Shown piece by piece: positions 1 to 59,268 of a stretch of 64,000 nucleotides of DNA. The first letter of the stretch is position 1. Each line of letters opens with the position of its first letter. Below the pieces are notes generated by a model, which was not told where the DNA came from, did no database searches, and saw only the letters and a program-made list of their open reading frames with translations. The stretch is from an uncultured Christensenella sp. (GTDB lineage Bacteria; Bacillota; Clostridia; Christensenellales; DTU072): NCBI GenBank assembly GCA_905210905.1, contig CAJLYQ010000001.1:4664-68663 (forward strand), written 5' to 3'. Both the position numbers and the translations under genes were made by a program.

Positions 1-1250
1 CTTTCGTATGCGTCGGTAAGTCCGATAAACACGAGTACGGCGTCTTTGTATGCGGACACCTTTTTCGCTTCGAGCATAAGCCTTTCGTTGTATCCGTTGC
101 CTTTAAGCGTGTATCCGGGCGCATATTCGTATTGTATGCCTTCTTCGTCGAGCGCTTGCACGAAAGAAACCGTCTTGGGCGGATTGATATGGCTGGAACC
201 TGCCCCCTGATAACGTAAATTCTTCGCAAGCGCGCCGATTACCGCAATTTTTTTGGTTTTGTCGAGCGGCAAAGCCTTGTCGACGTTTTTAAGAAGAACC
301 GCGCTCTCCGCCGCCGCTTTGCGCGCGACTTCGTGGTGTTCGTCAAGTTTTTGCGGCGCGTTTTCGACGATTTTCGACTTGCTTTCAAACGCGTATTTTA
401 TCATACGCAGAACCACGACGTCGAGTTCGCTCTCGTCGAGTTCTCCGTTTTGTACCGCTTTTATTATGTTGCGGTCGTTAAATCCTTTGTTCCCCGGCAT
501 TTCGAGATCGTTGCCGGCTTTAACCGCTTCCACGCGGTCGTTGATTGCGCCCCAGTCGCTCACGACGATACCGTCAAAACCCCACTCGTTGCGCAATACG
601 TCGGTAAGCATACGCTTGTTCTCCGACATATAAGTGCCGTTTACACGGTTGTAAGAACTCATTACCGTCTGCGGTTTGGCGCACTTTACGACGTGTTCGA
701 ACGCGCTCAGATAGATTTCTCTGAACGTTCTTTCGTCAAGACGAGTGTCGATACTCATACGAAGATGTTCCTGATTGTTGGCGCAGAAGTGCTTAAGGCT
801 GACGCCTACGTCTTCGCCCTGTACGCCGTCAACGTACGCCGCCGCCATTCTGCCGGTAAGATAAGGGTCTTCGGATAAATATTCGAAGTTTCTTCCGCAA
901 AGCGGACTCCTTTTAACGTTTATCCCCGGTCCGAGAACGGTCGCTACCTGCAACGCTTTCGCTTCTTCCGCTATCGCCTTGCCGACTTCTTTAATCAGGT
1001 CTTCGTCCCAACTGCACGCAATCGTGCTTTCCGGCGGAAAACAAGTAGCCGTTTCCGCAGGGCGCATAACGTTGGTCCCGGCACTCTGCTTTTCTTTGCG
1101 CAGTCCGTGCGGACCGTCGCTCATCCATACCGAAGGTACTCCGAGCCGCTCAACGGGTTTCGTCAGCCAAAAAGTAAGCCCCGAACAAAGCGACGCTTTC
1201 TCTTCCAACGTCATCTGTCTTAAAATCTCTACGTATTTAATATCGTCCAT
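1..1250 (-). CDS. Glycoside hydrolase family 3 (beta-glucosidase-like), N-terminal ~416 aa; the 3' end lies beyond the window start
   Basis: Absent from the supplied ORF track because there is no stop in the window. Hand translation of the minus strand from the ATG at 1250-1248 gives MDDIKYVEILRQMTLEEKASLCSGLTFWLTKPVERLGVPSVWMSDGPHGLRKEKQSAGTNVMRPAETATCFPPESTIACSWDEDLIKEVGKAIAEEAKALQVATVLGPGINVKRSPLCGRNFEYLSEDP... The frame is still open at the window edge (...VSAYKDAVLVFIGLTDAYE). SDGPHGLR and GPGxNxxRxPxxGRNFEY are classic GH3 N-domain motifs. GGAG RBS (ctcc on + strand, 1259-1262). Confidence 0.85.
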   Translation of the reverse strand, partial: MDDIKYVEILRQMTLEEKASLCSGLTFWLTKPVERLGVPSVWMSDGPHGLRKEKQSAGTNVMRPAETATCFPPESTIACSWDEDLIKEVGKAIAEEAKALQVATVLGPGINVKRSPLCGRNFEYLSEDPYLTGRMAAAYVDGVQGEDVGVSLKHFCANNQEHLRMSIDTRLDERTFREIYLSAFEHVVKCAKPQTVMSSYNRVNGTYMSENKRMLTDVLRNEWGFDGIVVSDWGAINDRVEAVKAGNDLEMPGNKGFNDRNIIKAVQNGELDESELDVVVLRMIKYAFESKSKIVENAPQKLDEHHEVARKAAAESAVLLKNVDKALPLDKTKKIAVIGALAKNLRYQGAGSSHINPPKTVSFVQALDEEGIQYEYAPGYTLKGNGYNERLMLEAKKVSAYKDAVLVFIGLTDAYE

Positions 1251-1271
1251 CTTTTTTTCTCCGTTCTTCTT

Positions 1272-1759
1272 GCAACGCCGAGCGTTGCATCTCATTACGC
1301 AATAAGTATATTGCTTATATAGGTCTATCACACGACAGCAACGTAGGACGTTGCACACCTTTACGCATTAGGTGTATTACATTTATAGGTACATCGCACG
1401 ACAAAAGCGAATTCCGTTATCCCCCTGCTGTCAACTCCGTTGACACCTTCCCCCAAGGGGAAGGCTTTATGCGGTGGTTGCAATTTGCCTGTTCGCTTTT
1501 CACCCTTCACTCTATAGGGTGGGCGGGTGGGCATACGCACTTTATCTCACGGTAAAAATTCCCGAAAAGCGGGAATTCACTTCTCGCTTTTCGCCCTTAT
1601 GGGGATCGAGCAAGGGGCAGCGCCCCTGCGAACTTCGCTTCCTAAGCAAAATGTGTCATTTTGCTTCCTTGGAAGTCCGACTTATGCGGATTAAAAATTT
1701 ATCCGCACGTCGGCAATTCTTGCCGACTGCGAGTAAATTTCCGCATAACGTTTGGTCGG
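1272..1759 (+). repeat. Mosaic palindromic-unit intergenic repeat, copy A (subfamily A/B)
   Basis: 488 nt made of consecutive short hairpins: gcaacgc-cga-gcgttgc (starts at 1272), gcaacgt-agg-acgttgc, gtcaac-tcc-gttgac, ccttcccc-caa-ggggaagg, ggggc-agc-gcccc, gcaaaatg-tgt-cattttgc, gcggat-taaaaattt-atccgc, gtcggcaa-ttc-ttgccgac. It ends ...cgcataacgtttggtcgg (1759). Long near-identical blocks recur at 2942-3370, and related blocks at 52534-53048 and 58787-59171. Confidence 0.85.
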
Positions 1760-1762
1760 TTT

Positions 1763-2854
1763 TTATAACAATAGCGTTTTATCTTCCCCCATACCCATCA
1801 TTCCGTCGAGAACGTATTTATTTCCGTCTTCGTCCATAACGTAACCGGTGAGTTCGCCGAACGCTACGAAGTAGTCGATGTTTACGATAGGTTTTGCGTG
1901 GGTGATCATACGGAAGATGTCGTAAACTTTGAAGTGAACGTCTACCATTCCGTGTTCGTCTTTAATAATCCAGTTCGCGCTGCCGTCGAAGTTTTTCGTT
2001 TCCACGTCGCGGGTAAAGGTTACGGGCGGCAGTATGCTCGTTTCGTTTTCGAACCAGATAAGGTTTTCGTTGTATTTTTCTTGGTCTATCGACTGATTGC
2101 GGGTAAGGTTAAACGCAAACCATTTCTTTTCGCCGTTGGTTTCGTTTATGCCCATCGTGGTAACCCAGTCGTAGTGCGCTCTTCTGGGGTAGTAACCTCT
2201 GTGGTCGTCTACTATCGCCGTGCTTTCTTCGTCGGTGTGGTAGGTTTCGCCGTTAAAGGTGAGCGTTCCTTCCGCGTGGAAGAAGTCTTTTTGCGAATAA
2301 AGCGGACGATGGCGTTCTTCGATCGGCGCAAAAGGTATGCTGACTACGCACGGCTTGGAAATTCTCTTGAGCGAGAACTTGTACTCGATGGAATTCGTTC
2401 CGTCGTCGTGGTGACCTTCGAGATCGCATCTGCCGTCCTGGAAATTGTTGACGTATTTTACGTGCGAGTTTTTAGTAACCGCTTTCGCTACCGAGCCGTT
2501 GATAAGGTTGGGCGCGATAACCGTGTCTTTGGATTTAAGGTTGGTGCTCCAACTATAAACCTTTTTCTTCGCCTTGTCGTAGTAAACGTTGAGCGTAAGA
2601 CCGAAAATGCCCATATCGCAAACGACGGCAAGCAAAACGCCTTGTTTCATATTAACTTCGGTGGCTTCCCATAACGTGAGTTTGTACTTCTTAAGACAAT
2701 CGGGCGCGTGCGTCGGGTTCTTAATTCCCATCAAATCCATAGTCTCAAACTCTTTGTCAAACGTGCCGAAAACACATTTTCCGTCTTTAACCATATCTTT
2801 AGGCGTAGCAACCGCTCTTCTCTTGTCGGATATAAACTTACTGTATTCTCCCAT
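1763..2854 (-). CDS. DUF2804-like hypothetical protein (363 aa)
   Basis: ORF with ATG and a GGAGG RBS (revcomp of acctcc at ~2861-2866). The C-terminal half (YDWVTTMG...FNLTRN...NENLIWFENETSILPPVTF...FGELTGYVMDEDGNKYVLDGMMGMGE) matches my recollection of the DUF2804 pattern (W.W...G...fNL...tEN.l...h.L..V.F...FG.f.G.v...G). The family assignment is from memory, not from a search. Confidence 0.6.
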   Translation of the reverse strand: MGEYSKFISDKRRAVATPKDMVKDGKCVFGTFDKEFETMDLMGIKNPTHAPDCLKKYKLTLWEATEVNMKQGVLLAVVCDMGIFGLTLNVYYDKAKKKVYSWSTNLKSKDTVIAPNLINGSVAKAVTKNSHVKYVNNFQDGRCDLEGHHDDGTNSIEYKFSLKRISKPCVVSIPFAPIEERHRPLYSQKDFFHAEGTLTFNGETYHTDEESTAIVDDHRGYYPRRAHYDWVTTMGINETNGEKKWFAFNLTRNQSIDQEKYNENLIWFENETSILPPVTFTRDVETKNFDGSANWIIKDEHGMVDVHFKVYDIFRMITHAKPIVNIDYFVAFGELTGYVMDEDGNKYVLDGMMGMGEDKTLLL

Positions 2855-2884
2855 TTTTTACCTCCGAAATAATTTTATGTTATT

Positions 2885-2913
2885 ATTTTAACTTATTTCC
2901 GATAACTTTTCAA
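2885..2913 (-). promoter_or_regulatory. Sigma-A-type promoter for the DUF2804-like gene
   Basis: Minus strand reads TTGAAA (2913-2908), a 17-nt spacer, then TAAAAT (2890-2885), about 30 nt upstream of the start codon at 2854. Confidence 0.5.
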
Positions 2914-2941
2914 GGGGGTAAAATTAAAAAAATAACGGCAA

Positions 2942-3370
2942 GCAACGTGGGACGTTGCATCCCTTTACGCATTAGGCGTATTACATTTATAGGTACATCG
3001 CACGAAAAAAGCGTATTCCGTTATCACCCCTGCTGTCAACTCTGTTGACACCTTCCCCCCAAGGGGAAGGCTTTTCGTTGCTGTCAACTTTGTTGTCACC
3101 TTCCCCCGTGGGGGAAGGCTTAGTCTGTTTCATTTTTGCGGACGTAAAGAGGCACGATATATACGACTCTTTACTCCCAAAAATTACGGGCGTGTACCGT
3201 AATTTTTGCCCGAATAGGGGGATGGTGGGGGAATCTCCCACGCCAAACTATATAGAAAGCGGAATGTGTCATTCCGCTTCCTTGGTAGTCCGACTTATGC
3301 GGATTAAAAATTTATCCGCGCGTCGGCTTTACGCCGACCGCGAGTAAATTTCCGCATAACGTTTGGTCGG
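2942..3370 (+). repeat. Mosaic palindromic-unit intergenic repeat, copy B (subfamily A/B)
   Basis: Starts with gcaacgt-ggg-acgttgc at 2942. It shares the block ...cctttacgcattaggYgtattacatttataggtacatcgcacga...ctgctgtcaactcYgttgacaccttcccc(c)caaggggaaggcttt and the terminal block aatgtgtcatt..gcttccttgg.agtccgacttatgcggattaaaaatttatccgc.cgtcggc...gccgac.gcgagtaaatttccgcataacgtttggtcgg with copy A. It ends at 3370, 7 nt from the giant-gene stop codon. Confidence 0.85.
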
Positions 3371-3377
3371 TTCTCTC

Positions 3378-6300
3378 TTATGCAACGATGTTGATATGAA
3401 CTTTCAGATTCAACACCGAGTCGCCAACCGCAACGTTGTCCAGACACAGAATGTACTTATTCGCCGTACTCGACGTATCGATATAAGTAAATCCGTTTCC
3501 GTCGCCGACGCTTATCAAATTGCCGAGTTCGTCGGTAAGGTACGCGTCTTGCCACGGCAGTACGATCGACGCTTTTTGCGTTCCCGTAACGTGTCCGCCG
3601 TCACCGAATAGCGACTTGAAGATTAAGTAGAATATCGCATTCGGCGTAGGTATTCCCAAAATCTTATCGTCTTTGTTCTTGTACCACGGGTTATTCATGA
3701 AGTATTCTACGTCCCAGTCGTACGCTACCGTAAGCAAGGGCAGGTATCTTATATCGAATTCCGAACCCTTCTTGATTCTGAGCAATACTTTTTCGCCGCT
3801 TTCGTTGCCCGTCGTACCGTACCAGTTTTCGTAAACGTTTCCGCTCGTGTTCTTCAGATTCCACAACTTATCGGCGGTTCTGTTGTAAGTGTATCCGGTG
3901 GGTACTGCGCTTACTTCGGTGTTGGAGAACGAATAGAGCATGTCGTCTTCGGACATCGAGTTATCCGGTCTGATAAGTTTGAGATTGCTCGAATTGATCT
4001 TCCAGTCGCTCTTCTCGTTAAGATACAGTTTCAGATAATCCTTAATGCTGCTCTTATACTGCTGATATTTCGATTTTTCGAAGTAGAACGGCGCGTTCTG
4101 TCCGTAAGTTGCGACGATGATCTTTCCGCCGATACCATCGAGCGTTGCCGGGTATGCCGCGCGTCCGCTTACCGACCAGGTTATCTTAGCGAGTTGGTCG
4201 TCGTTCACGGCGTACTGTTCTTTGTCGACTTCGCTGCCTTCTTCGCCTTCGGTGACGGTTCCGAGTTTATAAACCGCACTTTGCGCCACGCTGGTACTGC
4301 TCGTGCTCGTGTTCGTCTTTACGTAACGTCCGTCGCGATATACGCTGGTCGAAAGCACTCCCGTGCCGTTAGCCGCTCTCATGCCGTCCGCCTGGTTCGA
4401 GTTCAGTCTTGCTTCTCTTACCGTTCCGTTTTCCCGTTCGTAGAACACGTAGGTCATATCGTTGGCTATCGTGCTGGAAACGTTGGTGCTTTCCGCGTCG
4501 CCGTACTCGATCGGGATATAGATATTTGCAGGAGTCGTCGCTCCGCCGCCGTAACGAACCACGAGGTTTTCGGGGAGTTGATACGACTTCGTTCTGCTTA
4601 CCGAGATAAGCGAAGGAACGTTGGTAGAAATTTGTTTTCTGTCGCTTAATTGCGTGAATTCCCATGCTACCTTTTGTCCGCCTTTTCCGGCAAGGGTCAT
4701 CTTTGCGTACTGGTCTCTTTCTCCGAATCTGACTTCCCCGAAATACCACTTATTGTAGTTGTTTCTGTACGTTCCGCCACCGTAGATGTCGAGTACGTTA
4801 ATATAGTAGTTTACGCCGTTTACGTTGTAGTAAATGCGATAACCGTAGTATTTGTCGAACTTCGGTTGCAGATTGCTTGCTTCGTCGTAAACCACGGAAG
4901 TAAGCGCGGAGTTGCCGTTGTAGAAGTTCTTCGCGAGTATGTCGGCGTTCTTCGTGCCGTCAGATTCGGTAATCGCGGTCAGCGGGAACATTATGATATC
5001 TTCGGGTCCGTACTGTTCGGTCGAACGGAAGAGTACCACGGAGTTTGCCGTGCCGGCAATCAGCCACGGAACGACTTTGAAGTTAAGGCTTACCGACTGA
5101 TCGTCGATACTCATCTTGAACGTCGTCGCTCTTTCTTCGTCGTTGAAGTTTACCGTTATCTTGTTTTCGTTGCCGCCGCTCCAAAGCGCCACAAGATACT
5201 TCTCGTATTCCGCTGTTTGCGCTCCGCGGTAGTAGTGATAGTACGAATCGAGACTTCCGCCCTTTTCGCCGTTCTCCATCCACGCGTTCAACCATTCGGA
5301 GAACGACCCGTAAGCGGTGAATTCGTCCGAAACGTTTCCGCCGAAGTGGCTTAGCGCCGCCGTGAACTCGTCTTTAAGCGCTTTGCTTCCTGCGTAAATC
5401 ATTACGTAGTCGGGCATCTTGATTCCGCCGTCTTCGATGAAGTAGTACGGGCTTTCTATGGTAAATCTGCCGGTAACGGTGTCATAACTTATCATATGCA
5501 TCGTTCCGTACGACGTATCGGCGTTGCTGCCCCAAGTCGTGTCGCGGAGATAAATCTTACCGTTCGAAACGAGATAGTCGTGATGTCCGTCGCTCTTCGC
5601 GTCAATAAGACTTTCGAAGTACTTAAGCCACGCGTATCCGTAGATATCGACGGTCACGCCTTCGATTACCGTATTCGTCATATCGATTCTGTACGCGTCC
5701 GCCTGCGCCGATTTACCGTTAAATCCGTACTTCATCGTCGGTATCGCGAACGGAATGTACTGTTCTTTCGTGCTTACCTTAACGACGATTTCTTGCCGTT
5801 CGTTTCTGCCTGCGGCAAATCCGGGAACTTTCATTAAGAACTTAACGCCCGTACCGCGGTAGTTGATACCGTAGGTAGCGTCCATCTTGAATATCATCTG
5901 AACGCCGTTGTTGTACAGTTCTCCGTCCACTTCGCCGCTTATTTCTTCGCTCGTCAGAATGAACGTGACTTTGTTCTTCTTGCCGTTTACGACGACTTCG
6001 CCGATATAGTCGGTCGCGTTCTTGCCGTATACGAACCTTACGGGAGTGGTCGTACCTTTGCCGTAAACGTAGTAGACCTGACCCGCTCTGTTCTTGAACA
6101 CGCCCCTGCTTATTTCTTCGCCGATATTGAACTTACCGATGTAGTCGTAAACTTTAAGCGCTTTTTCGAGTTTGTCTTTGTCAAGGCACTTAACGGTAAG
6201 TATATCGCCGTTGTCGAGCGTAACGGTCTTGTCTGTAAGTACGCCGTCGACGAACAGGTTTGCCGTAAATCCGTTTACTATTTCGTAGTATTCGTTGCTT

Positions 6301-9300
6301 TCTTCGGCGAGTTTATGGTAATAAACGACTTCGCCGTCTGCGGTAGTGCCGTGCGGAACCGCGGTATTGACTCCCGCTATTCTCGACTTGAACTTCGCTT
6401 TGAACGGAATTCTTTGTCTGCTGAGTTCGGAGTCTTTTCCGCTGTTGGATACGATACCGTAAACGTCGAACGTACCGCCGCTCGTCTTGATCGTGATACT
6501 GCTGTCGCTGAACGTAAGTCCGACGTACTGCGTGTTAACTTGTTCGCTCAGGTCGTAACTGCTCGTCTTAAGCGTCACGTTGAGCGCTTTGTCGATAGCC
6601 GTTTCCTTAAATCTGAGCGTCGCTCCGTACTGACCGTACTTAAGGTATCCTTGTTCGTAATTGCCCGTCGCTTCGTCCTGCGCGAATCCGTCCGGATTGT
6701 TGACGTATCTTACGAACGGGTCGAACTCGAACGTGTTGGTCGAAGAGTTGTAGAACGGTGCGGTCGTGCCTTCCGCCGCGCTCGTGACGAACAGTACGCT
6801 TTCTACCGTTCTTTCAACGTAGATTACGGGTACGTCGAACGTCTGAACGCCGCCTGTCGCCTGTTCGCTTGCCGAACCGAAGGTTACGATAAGTCTGCCT
6901 ACGCCGCCGCCGTAACCGATCTGTCTGCCCGCGCCGCTGCCGGTCGCTTTCTTGAGCGTAACCGCAACTCCGCCCGCGCCGTTGCCTTTAACGGTTTCTA
7001 TCGCATAGCGGTTTACGTTTGCGTCCGCTCCGTCGTAACTAATCGTGTCGAAGGTGTGACTTACGATGTTGCTTATCGTTCCGTTATAACCTTCGCCCCA
7101 AGCGTATTTCGAGTTGTCTTTACCGATTATCGTCTTGCCGGAAACCGTTTCGTCGTAGTTGACCGTCTTGTCGAAGGATTCGATTATTCCGTAAACGTCG
7201 ATATAGTAAGCGTCTTTGTCAAGACCCTTGCCCGTTTCGTACGTCATATCGAGTATTCTTACGTCGATCGCGTCGCGGAACACTTTTTCGCTCGTCGAAG
7301 AAGGAACGTAGTCTTTGCCGTTCGTCTTAGGAGCGACTCTGAGTCCGTATGCGTCGGACGCGCCCTTTCTCGCCGCTTCGGAATCGGTTACGTCCGCTCC
7401 GACGGTAAGTTCTACCGTAACGTTTCTTCCGGTGTACAGATTGCTCTTAACCGTCGCATAACCCGTTCTCGCGTCGTAAATCTTGTAGTTGTCGCTCGTG
7501 AGCATATAGGTTATTTCGTATCCGCCTTCGCATATCGCTTTCGCGTATCTGAAGTATGTGAACGTCGCGTTGGCGTTGCCGCTTTCGTCGGTGATTTCTT
7601 CGCTGTACGTCGCGCTCGTCGCGTTGATACGGTTGTTCGATTCGAACATCGCGTTCTTGAGATTGTACGGATCGAGAAGGAGTTCGTACGTGCTGGTCGC
7701 GCCGCCGTTGAACTTGGTATAGATAAGGTCGTCTATAGCCGCGTACGTTCCTTTCGCGCCTTTCGGGTCGTAACTTACTTCGTAGTGCTTGATCGCTCTG
7801 TTGGTTACGGACACGCTTACTCTCGCCGTCTGTACGTTGACGGGGTTGCCGTCTTCGTCGACGTCTTTATAAACTTTGGCGAGAACGATGGTGTTCGTTT
7901 CTTTTTCGTCGTATTCGCCGCCGTTTATGCTCATTACGCTAAGTACCGCCGAGTAATCCCATATTACCGAAAGTTTGGTCGTTTCCGTACCGTTCTTTCT
8001 GTCGAGAAGTACTTCGATTTCGCTCGGTAAACCGTACGAAGAGTAGTCTTTTCTGCCGTTGTAGTCGACGTAAGCGTTCGTTTTGAACTCTCCCATATTT
8101 ACGAATCCGACGAACGGCTCGATTACCAGATTCTTCAATTCGTAAACGTCGAGTCCGGCGTTGCGTTCGTAAACGAGCATTTCGTTGCCGTGGTACGTGC
8201 CTGCGGCGGATATGCCCGCTTCGTCGGTGTTGACGATGCCGAGAAGCATTGCTTTTTCTATTCTTACGACAACGTCGAATTCCTGTCTTAAACTGCCTGC
8301 GCCGATGTACGCTTTAACGGTGTATTCTCCGCCGCCGGGCGTGTATTCGACGCTGCGCCTGGAGAGTTCGTCGATCGTTATGCCGTCGGCAAGACGAACG
8401 GGTTGGTTACCGCTACCGTACTGAGCGTATACCGCGTACGGGCTGTCGTCCGACGCAAAGTCGCCGAGATATACTTCTTTGTAGATATCGCCCGAAAGTT
8501 CCGTTTCGTCGCCGATAACTTCTTTACCGTCGACTACCGTTCTTTCTTTGAACACGACGGATACGATCTTTCTCGAAAGCAAGGTCGCGCTTACGGGGTA
8601 AGCCGTACGAACTTCGAAACTGTTTTGTCCGTTTGCTCCGTAAACCACCGTGCTACCCACGTTGAAGTAGATTTCGTGCGTCGCTTCGGCAAATCCGCTT
8701 GCGTTGTAAGCGTCGTAGTCGATATTGCCGTCGTCTATCTTAATGCTTACTTTTCTCTGCTTGCCTGCCTGAATTACTTCGCCGTCGAAGATTACGTCGC
8801 TCGTGATAAGCACTTCGGTGTACTTCGCCTTGATAGCGTCCATACTCATTCCGCTCGCCTGTTCCGCGTTGCCGTTCGAATTGTACGGGTCTACGGTAAC
8901 CGCGTCGGGAAGGTCGCCTAGTTTAACGCCGTCTTTTTCGTCTATCGACGTGATGATTTCCTGCGCTATCTTAAGGGTAACTTCGTCCGTTCTGTAACCG
9001 AAGGTTCTGTTGCCGATAAGTGCGAGCGCGGTAGGTCTCTTGCCGTTTGCCGCAAGTCCGGTGTAGTCGTATTCGTCGATGTTGCTCCATACGACGTCGA
9101 GCGTTACTTTTTCGGTTACGCTTTCGTCTACTACGACCGTAACGACCGCCTTGTCGGGCATTATCGAAGTAAGATCGTCGTACGCCGACGCGATAACTTT
9201 GTCGAAGTCGACGAGTTTGTCGCCGTTGTAGTACTCGATACCCGTTATTTCGGTAAAGCGTCTTATCGTAGAATTGTAAATTCTTACTTTAACGGTTTGT

Positions 9301-52533: not shown

Positions 52534-53048
52534 GCAACGGCAACGCCGAGCGTTGCATCTCATAACGCAAGCAACGCAGTGCGTTGCATCCCTGTACGGC
52601 AACGCCGAGCGTTGCATCTCATTACGCAAAAAGTATATTACTTGTATAAGTCTATCGCACGACACAACTAATTACTTTTAATGCGAGCAAAGGTACTTTG
52701 CCGGCACGAGCGGACACGCGCCGTGAGTGCCGCCCTTATGGGGATCGAGCAAGGGGCAACACGCCCCTGCGAACTAAAAATGAAAGCGGAATGTGTCATT
52801 CCGCTTCCTTGAAAGTCCGACTCGTGCGTGATTAGATTTTGTCCGCACAAAGCGTAGCGACTGCCGCAAAATCCCGCACGACGTTTGGTCGGATAATACC
52901 ACTCATCCGTCGGCAAAGCCGACACCTTCCCCCAAGGGGAAGGCTTTATTTGCATTACATCATTTAACTTCTGTCGTGTGACAAACTTGTATGCATAATA
53001 CGCTCATTGTGTAATGGGATGCAACGTCCCACGTTGCCGTTTGGTCGG
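52534..53048 (+). repeat. Mosaic palindromic-unit intergenic repeat, copy C (subfamily C/D)
   Basis: Begins with three ~30-nt hairpin units (gcaacgc-cga-gcgttgc, gcaacgc-agt-gcgttgc, gcaacgc-cga-gcgttgc). It continues with blocks roughly 85-90% identical by eye to copy D (...gtataagtctatc.cacgacacaa..aattacttttaatgcga.caaagg.actttg...gcccttatgggga.cgagc.aggggcaac..gcccctgcgaac...gtccgactcgtgcgtgattagattttgtccgcacaaagc..agcgactgccgcaaaatcccgcacgacgt.tggtcggataat). It ends with an inverted gcaacgt-ccc-acgttgc unit and gtttggtcgg (53048). Confidence 0.85.
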
Positions 53049-54890
53049 AGACCCTAGTGCTCTCATCGCATTAAGCACTGCGATTACGCACACGCCTACG
53101 TCTGCGAACACGGCAACGCCCATACCGGTTATACCGAGTGCGCTAAGGATAAGCACGAGAAGTTTAACTCCGAGTGCAAAAATTATATTTTCATAAACGA
53201 TACGCATCGTTTTTCTTGCGATTTTTACCGCTTCGGCGACTTTGAACGGTTTATCGTCCATAACGACCACGTCTGCCGCCTCGATTGCGGCGTCGCTGCC
53301 TATTGCGCCCATCGCAACGCCTACGTCCGCACGCATAAGCACGGGCGCGTCGTTTATACCGTCGCCGACGTATACCGTCGTGCCTTTTTCGTCTATGATT
53401 TTTTCCGCTTCTTCGACTTTGTTTTCCGGCAAAAGTCCGCTCTTGACTTCGTCTATTCCGACCTGTTTCGCTATCTCTTCCGCTACTCGTTTGCCGTCGC
53501 CGGTAAGCATAACGGTTTTTGCCGCGCCGAGCGTTTTCAGTTCTTTAATCGCGTCTTTCGAGTCGGGTTTTATTACGTCCGCAACCACTATATGCCCCAG
53601 ATACTCGCCGTCCGAAGCGACGTGGATTATCGTACCGGTAAGGTGACACTCGTGGCAAGTCGCGCCGACTTCTTCCATTAAAAGCGCATTCCCGACCGCT
53701 ACGCGTTTTCCGTCCAGAACGCCCGTAACGCCGTAGCCTGCTCTTTCTTTAACTTCGGTTATTCTGCTCTTGTCTATATCTCCGCCGTGCGCTTTGACTA
53801 TGGATTCCGCAATCGGATGGGACGAATAACTTTCCGCAAGGGCGGCTATGTCGAGAAGTTCTTCTTCGCTCGCCGTTTCCGGGTGTATCGCCGTCACTTC
53901 GAACACGCCTTTCGTAAGCGTTCCCGTTTTGTCGAATATAACCGTAGCCGGCTTGGACAAAAGTTCGAGATAGTTCGAGCCTTTTATAAGGATACCTTTG
54001 CTCGACGCACCGCCGATACCTGCAAAGAACGACAGCGGAACGCTGATTACCAACGCGCACGGACAGGACACCACCAAAAACGTAAGCGCTCTCTTTATCC
54101 ATTGCGTCCAGTTGTGGTCGATAAGCGACGGAATAACCGCCAGAAGTATCGCCGCCACCACCACGCTCGGCGTGTAATACTTGGCAAACTTAGTAATAAA
54201 ATTCTCGCTCTTCGATTTCTTCTCCGACGAGTTCTCCACCAAAGCAAGGATTTTCGACACGGTGCTTTCTTCGAACACGCCCGTCGTTTCCACTTCAATA
54301 ACGCCGTTTACGTTTACGCTACCGCTCAGAACCTGCTCGCCGACAGTTTTATCCACCGGCAAACTCTCGCCCGTAAGCGCGGCGGTGTTTACCGCCGTTT
54401 CGCCCTTAACGATTATTCCGTCAAGCGGTATCTTCTCGCCGGGTCGGATAACTATGCGCTCGCCCTTCTCCACTTCTTCGGGAGAAACGGTGACTTCTTC
54501 GCCGTTACGGAGAACCACGGCGACGTCGGGACGTATGTCCATAAGCGAAGAAATGCTCTTCCTGCTCTTTCCTACCGCTATTCCTTGGAAAAGTTCACCT
54601 ATCTGATAAAGTAACATTACGAGTACCGCTTCGGGGAATTCCTGAATTCCAAACGCGCCGAAAGTCGCTACTATCATAAGAAACCTTTCATCAAAAATCT
54701 GCCCGTGAGCGATGTTTTTTACAGCCCCGATTATTACGTCGTATCCGACAATCAAATACGGCACGGCGTAAATAATCAACATTCCCCACCAGGGAATAAC
54801 GGCAACGAACCTGTCGATAAGATACGCCGCAAGCAACATTACCGCCGCAACGCATATTCTTATTAAACTCTTTTTTTGTTTTCTCGTCAT
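53004..54890 (-). CDS. cadA: Heavy-metal (Cd/Zn/Co-type) translocating P1B-type ATPase
   Basis: 628 aa. CPC motif VSCPCALVISVP, phosphorylation site FDKTGTLT, hinge VGDGINDAP. It has no fused N-terminal HMA domain; that domain is encoded by the separate ORF immediately upstream. The last 15 codons (...PTKRQRGTLHPITQ*) lie inside repeat copy C. Confidence 0.9.
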   Translation of the reverse strand: MTRKQKKSLIRICVAAVMLLAAYLIDRFVAVIPWWGMLIIYAVPYLIVGYDVIIGAVKNIAHGQIFDERFLMIVATFGAFGIQEFPEAVLVMLLYQIGELFQGIAVGKSRKSISSLMDIRPDVAVVLRNGEEVTVSPEEVEKGERIVIRPGEKIPLDGIIVKGETAVNTAALTGESLPVDKTVGEQVLSGSVNVNGVIEVETTGVFEESTVSKILALVENSSEKKSKSENFITKFAKYYTPSVVVAAILLAVIPSLIDHNWTQWIKRALTFLVVSCPCALVISVPLSFFAGIGGASSKGILIKGSNYLELLSKPATVIFDKTGTLTKGVFEVTAIHPETASEEELLDIAALAESYSSHPIAESIVKAHGGDIDKSRITEVKERAGYGVTGVLDGKRVAVGNALLMEEVGATCHECHLTGTIIHVASDGEYLGHIVVADVIKPDSKDAIKELKTLGAAKTVMLTGDGKRVAEEIAKQVGIDEVKSGLLPENKVEEAEKIIDEKGTTVYVGDGINDAPVLMRADVGVAMGAIGSDAAIEAADVVVMDDKPFKVAEAVKIARKTMRIVYENIIFALGVKLLVLILSALGITGMGVAVFADVGVCVIAVLNAMRALGSPTKRQRGTLHPITQ

Positions 54891-55510: not shown

Positions 55511-55559
55511 TCATATTTATTGTCATTCATATATTATTCTTTTGAGTGCGGTTTGTCAA
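55493..55559 (-). promoter_or_regulatory. Promoter and candidate operator repeats of the arsR-HMA-cadA operon
   Basis: Minus strand reads TTGACA (55559-55554), a 17-nt spacer, then TAATAT (55536-55531). Three direct copies of ATATGAAT (attcatat on + at 55493-55500, 55509-55516 and 55525-55532) are spaced 16 nt apart. The promoter-proximal copy overlaps the -10 element. Confidence 0.55.
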
Positions 55560-55659
55560 CGGTTTTTCGGTAAAAATAACAAGAAATTTTGTCGATTACG
55601 GTTCAGAGCCGAGCGGAAAGCGGTTTTTATATGGTATATTAGAAGAAAAGGAGTGGCGT

Positions 55660-57546
55660 ATGACAAGGAGAAAGGGTTTCGTTTTATTATTAGCGGTGGT
55701 TGCGATAGAGATTGTTTCGTGCTTTGTTGCGGTTTATCCGATAGCGGCGGCGAGTGCGGAAAGCGGTTCGGTCGGCGGAGAAAATTCCGAGCCGATATTT
55801 TACGGCGCGACGAAAATAACGCTGACGAAAGACGCGATAACGGCGTTTTCCGTTAAAGACGCGCGGTTCCGCATATTTGCAAGAGATCGCCACGGGCGCG
55901 ACCTTACTCCTTATTTAGTATGCGAGAGCGACGACGTCGATCCGACAGTTGCGGGCGAATACTCCGTGCGGTACGTTGTGACGGACGGACGGGGAAACTC
56001 GGCTCGGATTACCGTTCCCGTAACGGTGCTTGACGAAACGGGCGAAAAGTTCGTGATCGAGCGGACGGTTTACGCAGTGCCTGCGATGAAAAATATGTCG
56101 TTTATCGGAACGGAGCGCTGCAACACGGGCGACAGGCAAATTTTGGGGATATATCTTCCCGAAGGGAGTTCTTTCCTTGCCCGCACGGTTTCCGCCGACG
56201 CCGAAAGCGATTTTCAGATAACTTTTTTCACGAACACGAGAGCGAAGAACTCGTTCGGTTCGATAAGCAAAACGCCGGGCGAATATCGGACTTTGTCCAA
56301 CGTAAAAAGCGGCGTTTCCTATTCTTCCGTTCCGCTGATCACTTCCCCTCGGCTGTCCGAAGAGATAACGGACAAAACCTACAAAATCGAAGTTGGTTTC
56401 GACGGTTCGGCAAAACCGCTTGACTATTATCATTATAAAGACGACGAACAAGCGTTTGTATCCGGGTGGAAAAGCACGGAAAGCGATTTCGGCGTGGTTG
56501 ACGGCGAAGCGATGCCCGTGGTAGTGCCGTTTGCCGACGCGGACAAACTTTCTAATTACCGTTCGGGCGGTTATAACGCTCCGTTCGCTTCGCTCGACGC
56601 GTTTTTCGAATACTATCTCGAAGTCGTCAATCGTATGGACGAATGGATAGGTTTGTCGTTTGACGCGACGAATGCGCTTGACCGCAACTACCGCGTTAAG
56701 TACACCTGCGCGGCGGACGGCGGAATGTCCGGGGTGGGCGCGTACTATGCCGGCGTTTTCATTGCGGTAGGAAGTTATACCGCCGCGCCGTTTTTTCAGT
56801 ACGGTTGGGGAACTTTGCACGAGATCGCGCACGGATATCAGGGTTATCTCGGCAGGGGCAACACGAACGGAATGAATATCGGACTTAACGAAACGGGCAA
56901 CAACGTGCTTGCTTATTACGTGCAAAACGACAGAACGCTTTATTTAGGAACGGACGACTGGATGGGCGGTTCTCTTGCCGCAGTCGAAAAGGCGCGCAAC
57001 TCGCTCCGTTTAAGCGGCGGCGAAGTTTTCGTGGCTACTTCGACCTACGCCAACGCTTCCGAGAAACTTTACGCTTTAATCAACCTTTTCAACTCCTTCG
57101 AAGGGGCGAAGACCTACGGCAAACTGTTTTCTTACTACCGCGCTTTGGCGGCGGAAAAAGGGGTAAACGCATTCACTACGCCCGACTTATACGCTCTCTT
57201 CTTCGCCGAAGAATACGGCGCGAACGTTATCCCCTATCTTAAAGCCTGGAAACTCGCCGTATCCGACGAAATGGACGTGGAAGTATCGTCGAAAGACCTC
57301 GTTCCGTTCGTCATTCCGTCCGACGTTTTGGGCGAAGAGCAAGCGAAAGAACTGAAAGAAGACGGCGCGATCGAACTTCTTTTTGCTCCGGTGGCGGAAA
57401 GCGTGCTTAACGCGAGCGAAGAAACCGACCTTACGATAAATATAAACGTCGACGATTTCGACGCAATTAAAGGGCGTTACGCAGGAATTTACAAAGGAAG
57501 CGAACTGATAAAACTCGTTTTGCTAAGTGACGACAAGTTACCGTAA
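55660..57546 (+). CDS. Secreted M60-like (enhancin-type) zinc metallopeptidase, N-terminal fragment of a probably split gene
   Basis: I place the start at the ATG at 55660 (RBS aaaggag; signal peptide MTRRKGFVLLLAVVAIEIVSCFVAVYPIAAASA) rather than the track's upstream alternative start at 55546. An Ig-like domain follows (AGEYSVRYVVTDGRGNSARITVPVTVL). The zinc motif HEIAH (56818-56832) followed by x19-E fits the Pfam M60 description HEXXHX(8,28)E. Confidence 0.75.
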   Translation: MTRRKGFVLLLAVVAIEIVSCFVAVYPIAAASAESGSVGGENSEPIFYGATKITLTKDAITAFSVKDARFRIFARDRHGRDLTPYLVCESDDVDPTVAGEYSVRYVVTDGRGNSARITVPVTVLDETGEKFVIERTVYAVPAMKNMSFIGTERCNTGDRQILGIYLPEGSSFLARTVSADAESDFQITFFTNTRAKNSFGSISKTPGEYRTLSNVKSGVSYSSVPLITSPRLSEEITDKTYKIEVGFDGSAKPLDYYHYKDDEQAFVSGWKSTESDFGVVDGEAMPVVVPFADADKLSNYRSGGYNAPFASLDAFFEYYLEVVNRMDEWIGLSFDATNALDRNYRVKYTCAADGGMSGVGAYYAGVFIAVGSYTAAPFFQYGWGTLHEIAHGYQGYLGRGNTNGMNIGLNETGNNVLAYYVQNDRTLYLGTDDWMGGSLAAVEKARNSLRLSGGEVFVATSTYANASEKLYALINLFNSFEGAKTYGKLFSYYRALAAEKGVNAFTTPDLYALFFAEEYGANVIPYLKAWKLAVSDEMDVEVSSKDLVPFVIPSDVLGEEQAKELKEDGAIELLFAPVAESVLNASEETDLTININVDDFDAIKGRYAGIYKGSELIKLVLLSDDKLP

Positions 57547-57551
57547 AAGGG

Positions 57552-58676
57552 TTGAAAATCGGATTTTATCGCATTTTAATGCCGCCTTTGATCGATTACG
57601 ACGTAAAAAATCCGTCTTTCGTATTGACCGCCGAACGAAACGAACTTACGATAGACTACGTAAACTCCGCTTTATCGAAGAAAATTTTCCATCCGACGAA
57701 ACTCAGGCTGCTCGGAATATACGGCGCGGAAGGGTTCTCGATGACTTTTTCGAACGATAACAAAACCGCGACCGTTGCTCTGGGCGGCGCGGATATGGGA
57801 AATCGCAACTCTACCTGGGCGGCAAAACCCGACGAAGTTTACGCATCGGTGACGGTGGTAAAACAAGACGGTGAAGTCGCAAACGAATATGCGATTAAAG
57901 GCAACGAATACTTCTCTTCCCTGACGCTAAGCAATCCGCAAATAACGCTCGAATACGGGTACAAAATACGAGTTTACACACAAAAACCCGAAAAAGTCGG
58001 CGTTTGGTCGCTTTTAACAAACCCGTCCGAAGAAATAACCGCTTATCGCACCGCAGATCAAACCACGGAATACGAAGTAACCGAAGACGGACTGAAAAAA
58101 CCAGGTGAAAAAGAGTTCTTTCCTGCAAAAATTTTGTACGAAACGATAAAAGACGAATGGATTAAAAAAATCGCCGATTACTCCGAAACGCTTACGGACA
58201 AACAAGCGAAAAACTTGCGTTTCGACACGAAAACAAAACGCGAAATATTGCGCATTTACGACAATCTTAACGAAGAAGACCGTATTCAGTTTTCCGATTT
58301 TTGCCAAAAAATCGGAAAAGGCAATCCGCCTGTCGTTACGCTTTTAACCAAACGGACGGAAATTTACGTCGGCGAAGAAATCGACTTGCTCGCCTTAATC
58401 TCGGCAAGCGATGTCGAAGATTTATATATCGACGTAACGAGCAATTCGGTTTCCGTAAATACTACTTTGGATAACCGCAAACAAGGAATTTACTCCGTAA
58501 CCTATACCGTAGTCGATTCGGACGGGAACGCTTCGAGCGCAACTCTCGAAGTGGAAGTTAAAGCAAAAATCAATCCGCCTTCCCCAGGCGAAGGCGACCC
58601 CGACAAACCGAACGGTCCCGGCGAAAACGAACCGAAAAACGATAATCCAGGCAACGAAACCAACAACGTAAATTAG
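57552..58676 (+). CDS. Continuation of the M60-like surface protein: carbohydrate/mucin-binding-like module, helical spacer, Ig-like domain and Pro/Asn-rich stalk
   Basis: The called start is TTG with no RBS, and this frame is already open from 57531. LRLLGIYGAEGFSMTFSNDNKTATVALGG...YASVTVVKQDGEVANEYAIKGNEY...LEYGYKIRVYTQKPEKV resembles the module found C-terminal to enhancin/M60 peptidases (from memory). A C-terminal Ig-like domain follows (GIYSVTYTVVDSDGNASSATLEVEV), then PPSPGEGDPDKPNGPGENEPKNDNPGNETNN. Confidence 0.6.
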   Translation: MKIGFYRILMPPLIDYDVKNPSFVLTAERNELTIDYVNSALSKKIFHPTKLRLLGIYGAEGFSMTFSNDNKTATVALGGADMGNRNSTWAAKPDEVYASVTVVKQDGEVANEYAIKGNEYFSSLTLSNPQITLEYGYKIRVYTQKPEKVGVWSLLTNPSEEITAYRTADQTTEYEVTEDGLKKPGEKEFFPAKILYETIKDEWIKKIADYSETLTDKQAKNLRFDTKTKREILRIYDNLNEEDRIQFSDFCQKIGKGNPPVVTLLTKRTEIYVGEEIDLLALISASDVEDLYIDVTSNSVSVNTTLDNRKQGIYSVTYTVVDSDGNASSATLEVEVKAKINPPSPGEGDPDKPNGPGENEPKNDNPGNETNNVN

Positions 58677-58780
58677 GCAAAACCGCAATTATCGGCATAG
58701 TTTCCGCCGCCGTTTTCGCCCTGATTTTCGCCGTATCCGCTATTATTTTCGTACGCAAAAAGAACCGCAAAAAGTCCTAA
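58646..58780 (+). other. Out-of-frame C-terminal membrane anchor remnant of the M60-like protein
   Basis: The frame shifted by +2 relative to the 57552 ORF reads SRQRNQQRKLGKTAIIGIVSAAVFALIFAVSAIIFVRKKNRKKS*. This is a hydrophobic TM helix plus a basic tail with no start codon of its own. It overlaps the stop of the preceding ORF (58674-58676). Confidence 0.6.
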
Positions 58781-58786
58781 CAGCGA

Positions 58787-59171
58787 GCAATGCCGAGCGG
58801 CAACGTGGGACGGCAACGCCGAGCGGCAACGTGGGACGTTGCATCCCTTTACGCAATAGATATATTACGCGTATAAGTCTATCACACGACACAATCAATT
58901 ACTTTTAATGCGAACAAAGGCACTTTGGACAAGTGCCGTGAGTGCCGCCCTTATGGGGAGCGAGCGAGGGGCAACGCCCCTGCGAACTTCGCTTTTAAGC
59001 AAAATGTGTCATTTTGCTTCCGTGGTAGTCCGACTCGTGCGTGATTAGATTTTGTCCGCACAAAGCAAAGCGACTGCCGCAAAATCCCGCACGACGTGTG
59101 GTCGGATAATGCCCCTCATCCGTCGGTTTTACCGACACCTTCCCCCCAAGGGGAAGGCTTTGTTTGGTCGG
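58787..59171 (+). repeat. Mosaic palindromic-unit intergenic repeat, copy D (subfamily C/D)
   Basis: Begins with four tandem 13-nt half-units (58787-58838) and continues with blocks shared with copy C. It contains gcaaaatg-tgt-cattttgc, gtcggt-ttt-accgac and ccttcccc-ccaa-ggggaagg, and ends at gtttggtcgg (59162-59171). Confidence 0.85.
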
Positions 59172-59230
59172 ATAATTGGCTTTATTTGAACATTAAAAGA
59201 AATCCGCATAACGATCGTCACGCAGATTTC

Positions 59231-59268
59231 AAACAAAACAACAAACAAGTAACGGCTCGTTACTTGTT
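59231..59268 (-). terminator. Rho-independent terminator downstream of the acyltransferase gene
   Basis: An 11-bp stem aacaagtaacg/cgttacttgtt (59244-59254 / 59258-59268) with loop gct. On the minus strand it is followed by gttgttttgtttg. Confidence 0.6.

Follow-up and report, generated by a model that had tools for sequence, protein, structure and literature searches.

A mosaic family of structured interspersed repeats beside stop codons in gut Christensenellales

Christensenellales are heritable, health-associated gut bacteria that are known mostly from metagenome-assembled genomes (MAGs). The window analysed here is a 64-kb stretch of DNA from an uncultured Christensenella sp. (contig CAJLYQ010000001.1). 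A Pfam scan of 20 of its open reading frames (ORFs) revealed an ordinary bacterial chromosome, with GH3 and DUF2804 proteins, P-type ATPases, an ABC transporter, tRNA enzymes and an ArsR regulator. Region reading and a repeat finder located four mosaics between these genes on the plus strand, at 1272-1759 (copy A), 2942-3370 (copy B), 52534-53048 (copy C) and 58787-59171 (copy D). A first-pass annotation had presented the four as a BIME/REP-like repeat family, and their positions, homology and common strand were borne out by alignment, nhmmer and a covariance model. Each mosaic contains, once, a core of ~165 nt that we designate U. Around it lie accessory modules: M1, M2, a G-quadruplex motif and hairpins of the A5-stem-T5 type.

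Exactly four full core units were recovered from the window by nhmmer and the covariance model (E-values 1e-42 to 1e-47), all of them on the plus strand, and a covariance-model search with the filters off gave no further copies in the window. The core of copy A (1592-1759; nhmmer E=1e-51; covariance model score, 178 bits) folds into three helices: hp1, hp2 and, on the 3' side, a long irregular hairpin whose last bases are GGTCGG. The core of copy B lies at 3207-3370. Those of copies C (52731-52892) and D (58946-59105) carry a TCGTGCG/CGCACGA helix subtype and are 86% identical to each other. The copies had been described as strings of 6-9-bp hairpins; such hairpins exist, but the conserved entity is the three-helix core, and M1 and M2 are species-specific.

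The fold of U was assessed with 50 distinct units, which were aligned and given a consensus structure by RNAalifold. Its 44 pairs are spread over three domains, of which two are short hairpins and the third is a long, irregular one. Double compensatory changes occurred in 26 of the 44 pairs, compared with 4-7 pairs when the partners were slid. Pairing was kept in 97.5% of 2,199 cells (86.8% in shuffled and 33-45% in slid controls), both sides had changed in 262 cells (78 shuffled, 5-37 slid), and the covariation score of 0.345, against 0.149 in the shuffles, was reached by 0 of 500 shuffles. Entire helices have been exchanged with the pairing intact, as in TTATGCGGA/TCCGCATAA versus TTACACGGA/TCCGTGTAA versus TTGCGCGGA/TCCGCGCAA versus TCGTGCG/CGCACGA, and hp2 occurs as GCAAAATG/CATTTTGC, GGAAGTCG/CGACTTCC and GCAAGAC/GTCTTGC. 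The core fold is under selection, and the earlier proposal that the stems are held by compensatory changes holds for these 50 units beyond both controls. Mean identity between units was ~74% inside one genome and 70% between species. Since divergence within a genome is about as deep as between species, the fold has been kept over long divergence, not only since a recent burst.

Selection on structure, in RNA or in single-stranded DNA, had also been proposed; the structure is selected, but covariation does not tell the two molecules apart. G-U and A-C intermediates are about equally frequent (27 and 21 cells), so covariation separates neither the strands nor RNA from single-stranded DNA. Both strands of the core fold well beyond shuffles (z = -7.2 and -8.2), with folding energies of -92.5 kcal/mol for the plus and -86.2 kcal/mol for the minus strand. 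The unpaired motifs CGAAC, CTTCC, AGTCCGACT and ACGnnTGGTCGG are invariant in U. Of the 50 units, roughly half have GTAG ahead of TCCGAC; in the others this place is taken by GAAG, TGAG, TAAG or AAAG, and only AG is invariant.

All four mosaics lie downstream of a minus-strand gene, which sharpens the earlier remark that the copies are found 3' of a gene. In copy A, 3 nt separate the GGTCGG end of U, its tail, from the stop codon of the DUF2804 gene (1763-2854, minus strand); in copy B, 7 nt separate the tail from that of a 12,534-aa ORF (3378-40982, minus strand). At copy C, a P-type ATPase ORF (53004-54890, minus strand) meets no stop codon before the repeat and reads into it, taking its last 14 codons (...NAMRALGSPTKRQRGTLHPITQ*) from the cap GTTTGGTCGG and an inverted M1; this read-through recurs in other strains. 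Copy D is 157 nt from a hexapeptide-transferase gene. Across all loci, 20 U tails were within 100 nt of a convergent gene's 3' end, and for 13 of these the distance to the stop codon was 2-12 nt. Another 7 tails were within 100 nt of a co-directional ORF (its start, or overlapping it), some of these cases probably being ORF-calling errors. Neighbouring units formed direct, head-to-tail pairs in 25 of 33 cases and inverted pairs in 8. The tails of the inverted pairs pointed outward in 8 of 8, at spacings of 146-406 nt, as expected if each of two convergent genes has its own unit. U thus has a strongly preferred position and orientation beside stop codons. The copies had been described in plus-strand orientation; their orientation relative to the genes points instead to the minus strand as the one that is co-transcribed.

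When the units are read in gene sense, as the reverse complement, an A5-stem-T5 hairpin directly follows most of them, those of copies A and B included. In copy A this hairpin of A-tract, stem and T-tract at the U head was located at 1554-1591 by a terminator scan and folding, with no strand assigned to it; the scan match itself was on the minus strand, from 1586 to 1563, directly after the reverse-complemented U. The head hairpin of copy B, AAAAATTACGG..CCGTAATTTTT at 3179-3207, is terminator-like on either strand.

A further element on the head side is the G-quadruplex-type motif (G3N1)3G3, which occurred at 11 sites on the same strand as U; its distance to the head of the U-profile match was 32-53 nt, in most cases 49-53 nt. 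The 11 sites include GGGTGGGCGGGTGGG at 1517-1531 of the window (plus strand, copy A) and the same site in three other strains. As the U-profile match starts ~12 nt upstream of the annotated core, the motif at 1517-1531 is 50 nt from the start of this match and 60 nt 5' of the core. In total, 24 such motifs were present in the 513 kb of DNA fetched around the loci, compared with about 0.02 expected by chance according to our estimate. The G-quadruplex motifs of the mosaics often form inverted C-rich/G-rich pairs around an AT-rich centre of ~125 nt, with examples at L030:6488-6503 and 6631-6645 and at L036:1565-1579 and 1688-1702.

A four-way alignment showed that copies A to D are assembled from common modules whose order differs, and this alignment and the comparison of strains support the mosaicism that had been proposed. 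M1 (~65 nt) consists of a GCAACG-N5-CGTTGC hairpin and a conserved tail; M2 (~44 nt) consists of two hairpins, one of which, CCTTCCCC-CAA-GGGGAAGG, is present in all four window copies. The closing pair of the GCAACG hairpin is either C-G or T-A, with four different loops. In U, GCAAAATG-TGT-CATTTTGC is found in copies A and D and GCGGAATG-TGT-CATTCCGC in copies B and C. These three sets of hairpins are present as the first-pass annotation had quoted them. It had grouped a fourth set as variants of a single hairpin; all three of its members exist, but they represent two hairpins without homology, GTCGGC-AAA-GCCGAC (copy C) and GTCGGT-TTT-ACCGAC (copy D) belonging to an M2 variant, M2'', and GTCGGCAA-TTC-TTGCCGAC (copy A) being the apical hairpin of U. 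The sequence gtttggtcgg, said to occur in all copies, was recovered as GTTTGGTCGG or GTGTGGTCGG at or near the right end of every window copy.

Copy A opens with two tandem M1 units on the plus strand (1272-1335 and 1338-1401; nhmmer with the M1 profile), in which the GCAACG-N5-CGTTGC hairpin is followed by TTACGCA..GTATTAC..TATAGGT..CACGAC. The end of this array is 20 nt before the start codon of the minus-strand GH3 gene. M2 of copy A (1426-1469, plus strand) has a GTCAAC-N3-GTTGAC hairpin ahead of the CCTTCCCC-CAA-GGGGAAGG hairpin. In copy B, the M1 and M2 profiles placed an M1 at 2942-3005 and two M2 at 3032-3074 and 3080-3122, all on the plus strand. Copy C has partial hairpin units at 52539-52570 and 52571-52598 and a full M1 at 52598-52662 on the plus strand; 3' of its U lies M2'' (52906-52949, plus strand), with GTCGGC-AAA-GCCGAC and the CCTTCCCC hairpin. 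It ends on the minus strand with an M1 at 52974-53038, in agreement with the inverted end unit noted earlier, and a terminal cap GTTTGGTCGG at 53039-53048. At the start of copy D, on the plus strand, several partial GCAACG hairpins stand in a row (58787-58824), followed by one full M1 (58825-58889). Its end, on the same strand, is formed by M2'' (59119-59161) and then, as a second terminal cap, GTTTGGTCGG (59162-59171); GGTCGGATAAT is duplicated, one on each side of M2''. Between copy D and the hexapeptide-transferase gene, AAATCCGCATAACGATCGTCACGC at 59208-59232 is similar to a decayed core-unit tail.

Strains with an identical DUF2804 protein differed widely in the spacers on either side of its gene: 524, 735, 1007 or 1340 nt between the giant gene and DUF2804 (site B), and 226, 365, 469 or ~514 nt between DUF2804 and GH3 (site A). 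What differed was entire modules, which had come or gone where sequence is repeated. Strain L059 is without one M1 at site A, and L056 represents the smallest filled state, with U and its hairpin, no M1 or M2, and a U that is itself a mosaic of two subtypes. At site C, strain L116 is without one 28-nt hairpin unit, and at site D, strain L107 has an additional M1+M2 block. These patterns point to unequal recombination and gene conversion among the modules, and the strain comparison shows the surrounding mosaics to be recombination hot spots in which rearrangement is still under way.

In two sister-species loci the gene order was kept and no U was present: the DUF2804-GH3 spacer was 53 nt in L124 (DUF2804 90% identical) and 22 nt in L126 (85% identical). 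The MAG behind L126 is also that of L022, where a unit is present at a different locus. The empty sister sites indicate that U entered an operon spacer, a few nucleotides past the stop codon, and judged by this comparison the repeats are shown to be insertions. A different origin, in which the units are vertically inherited 3'-untranslated region (3'UTR) or terminator sequences that resemble each other by descent or convergence, would fit their location at gene ends and their terminator-like hairpins. It is contradicted by the empty orthologous sites, and there are, besides, dozens of copies with 70-99% identity at unrelated loci and modules gained and lost between strains; we give it next to no credence. 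Nothing like a target-site duplication, a terminal inverted repeat or a fixed target was seen at ~50 junctions or between the filled and empty site. The junctions had a tendency for T before CCGACC. The ends of U (GCCC... and ...GGTCGG) are not inverted repeats, and the hallmarks of miniature inverted-repeat transposable elements are lacking. Duplicated GTTTGGTCGG caps flank the later-inserted modules in copies C and D and in several copies of another MAG, CAYQKV01. Downstream of the giant gene in the sister species, L124:2701-3001 is without U and contains two AAATCCTTCCC-TTTC-GGGGGAAGGATTT hairpins. These resemble the CCTTCCCC hairpin of M2, so that M2 may derive from the native terminator of the giant gene.

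A check for extra copies, as the first-pass annotation had suggested, was carried out by scanning one genome per species with an invariant 17-base core pattern, after which the loci were profiled. The loci numbered ~27 in MAG CAYQKV01 ('uncultured Christensenella sp.'), one in a Christensenellales MAG (L022) and one in a Clostridia MAG from the Hadza gut (L014); all other matches of the genome scan were due to chance. A metagenome scan added two organisms, ERZ779888 and Ga0256404. At least four Christensenellales-like genomes carry U. The DNA fetched around the loci contained 102 units in all (about 100 in other genomes), and the high copy number that had been predicted is supported. CAYQKV01 is a different species from that of the window, given that the ATPase gene common to both is only 75% identical at the DNA level. 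Its sampled 8-kb pieces hold ~46 full-length units (roughly 55 with partials), which are 80-90% identical to the window units and stand singly or in head-to-tail arrays of up to 3 or 4 with periods of 176, 203 and ~245 nt. Ga0256404 has a short form, with hp2 and the 3' domain only and another compensatory variant of hp2. No M1 or M2 was found with nhmmer profiles in U-carrying loci outside the window species, which identifies U as the conserved core and M1 and M2 as lineage-specific accretions. Collectively, U represents a real, multi-species family of insertion-derived repeats.

An extra module (GGGGGAACATTATGAGGAAAGGGGTTTATTAAGGGGGC...GCCCCCTTAA), which has the appearance of a ribosome-binding site with a tiny ORF and strong hairpin, was present at site B (the 2855-3377 spacer of the window) in L058 and L056 and also in L077, L084, L087 and L103. 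Some strains of the window species carry it, as does another organism (Ga0256404). Many metagenome contigs terminate inside repeats. For many DUF2804 orthologues of other species, the only source is a contig of 1.2-2 kb, hardly longer or shorter than the gene itself, which suggests that in many Christensenellales assembly-breaking repeats lie on either side of this gene.

The family matched nothing known in the sources searched. Rfam 15 gave no match in the 64 kb at the gathering score, and at E<=10 the stretch 1200-3450 (copies A and B) gave chance-level matches only (E>=0.06; asX2, E=0.06). BLAST of the core against plasmids and phages returned no match, viral contigs contained 5 exact-pattern matches of which none fitted the unit profile, and the searched literature held no description of such repeats in Christensenellales. 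The view that no known family was involved is consistent with these results. Integron attC sites were considered and rejected, as the units are dispersed among housekeeping genes of both orientations, form gene-less arrays and have no integrase beside them by Pfam in the window.

The same searches bear on whether a guide-RNA scaffold (an omega-RNA of TnpB or IscB, or a PATE-type IS200/IS605 derivative) survives in the units, as relics or as stand-alone copies, with the variable flank as guide. A length of 165 nt, a high degree of structure and an invariant 3' GGTCGG that directly abuts unrelated flank would suit such an RNA. We nevertheless regard this origin as very improbable: the Rfam scan of 1200-3450 at E<=10 matched no scaffold family, HEARO included, no recurrent ORF of TnpB or IscB size was found near any unit, no conserved motif resembling a target-adjacent motif is present at the other end, and within arrays the 'guide' would be the next unit.

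Mobilising genes were sought as well. No transposase or integrase was among the Pfam-scanned window ORFs. All-against-all clustering of the ORFs near the units gave only pseudo-ORFs running through repeats, with no recurrent ORF, and phmmer detected no Y1/IS200-like TnpA in the 513 kb around the 102 units, a weak test, with an IS608 TnpA sequence as the query. The L002 ORFs between an inverted unit pair were examined as a candidate mobiliser and rejected, since they look like an unrelated AT-rich island. These results are pertinent to the main rival of a 3'UTR reading, according to which U is a selfish single-stranded-DNA element: its hairpins, together with CGAAC, CTTCC, AGTCCGACT and ACGnnTGGTCGG, would be the substrate of an HUH/Y1 enzyme acting in trans, of the RAYT or IS200/IS605 TnpA type, and proximity to stop codons would merely reflect where insertions are tolerated. 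The want of strand asymmetry in G-U versus A-C, the equally good folding of both strands, the insertions with empty sites in sister species and the head-to-tail arrays, expected if an element's own end is its preferred target, all agree with this possibility, and the duplicated GTTTGGTCGG caps around inserted modules look like site-specific joins. The GTAG that roughly half of the units have before their long hairpin is likewise reminiscent of the motif in RAYT-used REPs (PMC3184786). However, GTAG is only partly present, GAAG, TGAG and TAAG being common too; neither the Y1-like ORF nor a recurrent ORF was detected in the searches above; orientation tracks the neighbouring gene, as in the tail-outward pairs at single loci, and not the direction of replication as in IS200/IS605 insertion; and the ~26% divergence within a genome, with intact pairing, speaks against a recent burst alone. 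We hold the selfish element to be a tentative possibility, and a rather unlikely one.

On balance, it seems probable, with considerable room for doubt, that copies A to D belong to an undescribed family of non-autonomous BOX/SPRITE/REP-like repeats in gut Christensenellales that form, on the minus strand, a structured 3'UTR with a terminator-like hairpin. To judge from position, the functional strand would be the minus strand of the window, and the mRNA of the upstream gene would run from the stop codon through the reverse-complemented U to the terminator-like hairpin. A U cassette of this kind may act as a structured 3'UTR and terminator, and could serve as a barrier to 3' exonucleases or as a transcription insulator. 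Other modules accrete around the core and are reshuffled by recombination, and the elements may spread by some machinery acting in trans, RAYT-like or other.

Several observations weigh against this 3'UTR interpretation. The strand is assigned by position, and near-equal G-U and A-C counts would suit single-stranded DNA, or a function of both strands, no less than RNA. Being rich in A/U and symmetric, the head hairpins are weak and bidirectional terminators, and some clusters, e.g. L001 and L027, lie between divergent genes. In the sister species, the place that insertion A splits is an operon spacer, and GH3 has nonetheless been kept, so that either the hairpin is not a tight terminator or a promoter arrived with the element; a promoter scan identified no promoter with the element at A. 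The failure to find a target-site duplication, terminal inverted repeat or transposase also counts here.

The assignment to the minus strand was further weighed against a plus-strand alternative, in which U would be a multi-copy small-RNA gene transcribed from a promoter in M1 or other upstream modules. The M1 sequence TTACGC-17 nt-TATAGG/TATAAG loosely resembles a sigma-70 promoter, the plus strand folds slightly better, and on it the G-U cells slightly exceed the A-C cells. M1 was nonetheless rejected as a promoter, since its -10-like hexamer ends in G and in almost all copies is without the near-invariant final T, the promoter scan was silent, and M1 is absent from the other U-carrying genomes. 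On the plus strand, moreover, the T-run hairpin precedes U, which has no terminator of its own and would run into the antisense of the neighbour's last codons, and head-to-tail arrays of up to 3 or 4 units, some without a spacer hairpin, are unlike separate genes. A small-RNA gene is therefore improbable in our estimation.

Under the 3'UTR reading, U starts within the footprint of the terminating ribosome and hence might also modulate translation termination. Liang, Rudd and Deutscher reportedly found in 2015 that many REPs of E. coli are no more than ~15 nt away from a stop codon and that translation is affected in such cases. A more far-reaching version, in which the core represents a new class of 3'-end element, either a host-selected 3'UTR RNA that works only in that footprint or a mobile element that targets the stop/terminator region in the direction of transcription, we consider doubtful. 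If the 3'UTR RNA variant were true, termination, ribosome rescue or mRNA decay would be tuned for dozens of genes together. Under either variant the G-quadruplex module at ~50 nt would be a functional part, for example a template-strand roadblock behind a weak terminator.

Kinship to known repeats was judged by behaviour, from published descriptions of BOX, SPRITE, REP/BIME and bcr1 (PMC3049150, PMC3184786). BOX elements of Streptococcus pneumoniae (boxA-boxB(n)-boxC) are modular, non-autonomous, structured, intergenic and co-transcribed and encode no transposase (PMC3049150, PMC3184786). The U family is likewise modular and non-autonomous, non-coding and strongly folded, has no transposase within, and varies in the numbers of U, M1 and M2 among copies and strains. 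As described, BOX is set apart by a repeated internal module of ~45 nt (boxB), compared with the 165-nt three-helix U, and by its fixed A...C pair of terminal modules, which the U family does not have; in addition, U hugs stop codons with an orientation fixed relative to the upstream gene. SPRITEs are terminator-like and located near convergent genes' 3' ends (PMC3049150, PMC3184786), a behaviour matched by the A5-stem-T5 hairpin after most reverse-complemented units and by the 20 versus 7 tails at gene 3' ends. A SPRITE, however, is essentially a terminator-like motif alone (~105 nt), whereas in the U family a 165-nt covarying structure precedes the hairpin and the units form arrays and mosaics with other modules.

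REP/BIME sequences of Enterobacteriaceae and Pseudomonas are extragenic palindromic units with hundreds of copies, mosaics and compensatory stems, which are situated where a gene ends (3') or in the gap between two convergent ones, and which influence the stability of mRNA (PMC3184786). The earlier assignment to a BIME/REP-like class is apt insofar as the U family is a mosaic, interspersed one that clusters at gene ends and keeps its stems by compensatory change. Its unit size and the geometry of its arrays nevertheless place it outside REP/BIME in the narrow sense. Compared with a REP, a G+C-rich palindrome of ~35 bp with a conserved GTAG, U is about five times longer, has 44 pairs and carries GTAG only in part; unlike BIMEs, with their alternating REP orientation and linker motifs, U arrays are head-to-tail (25 of 33 pairs direct); and the hallmark of REPIN-RAYT systems, a REP-flanked RAYT gene, was not seen in the window or the 513 kb of loci. 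The Firmicute repeat bcr1 of the Bacillus cereus group (~155 nt) is transcribed and multi-stemmed, with compensatory changes and a strain-variable distribution (PMC3184786). U is a Firmicute repeat of similar length, with a multi-stem structure and compensatory changes. The two have no sequence similarity, the 5-bp direct repeats of bcr1 insertion sites were not found for U, and bcr1 is not reported as mosaic or stop-codon-hugging. The U family is best filed as a new family among the small structured interspersed repeats, unusual in its large three-helix core, its tight stop-codon proximity and its attached G-quadruplex module.

Conceptually the family extends a familiar class. Being outside Rfam and without a description in the searched literature, it marks an annotation gap in Christensenellales. 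Its repeats break metagenome assemblies, so that some genes are recovered only on gene-sized contigs, and they inflate and diversify intergenic regions between strains with identical proteins. Gene 3' ends have been rewritten, with one ATPase ORF extended into the repeat and one operon spacer split. A covariance model of the core would permit masking by annotators and use as a strain marker. Given the deep divergence with pairing kept, the 2-12 nt spacing from stop codons and the attached G-quadruplex motif, the family offers a good system for asking whether REP-like repeats are selected 3'-end modules or tolerated parasites.

Two of the neighbouring genes showed features of their own. The 12,534-aa uninterrupted ORF on the minus strand (3378-40982), for which no Pfam match is on record, recurs with 12,534-12,562 aa on several independent metagenome contigs. 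At 55546-58779, an M60-like surface peptidase is split into ORFs of 666 and 374 aa, with a C-terminal membrane anchor in a third frame, and represents either a frameshifted pseudogene or a sequencing error. Other strains have this peptidase as a single ORF of 1,040 aa or in pieces that are 506 and 400 aa long.

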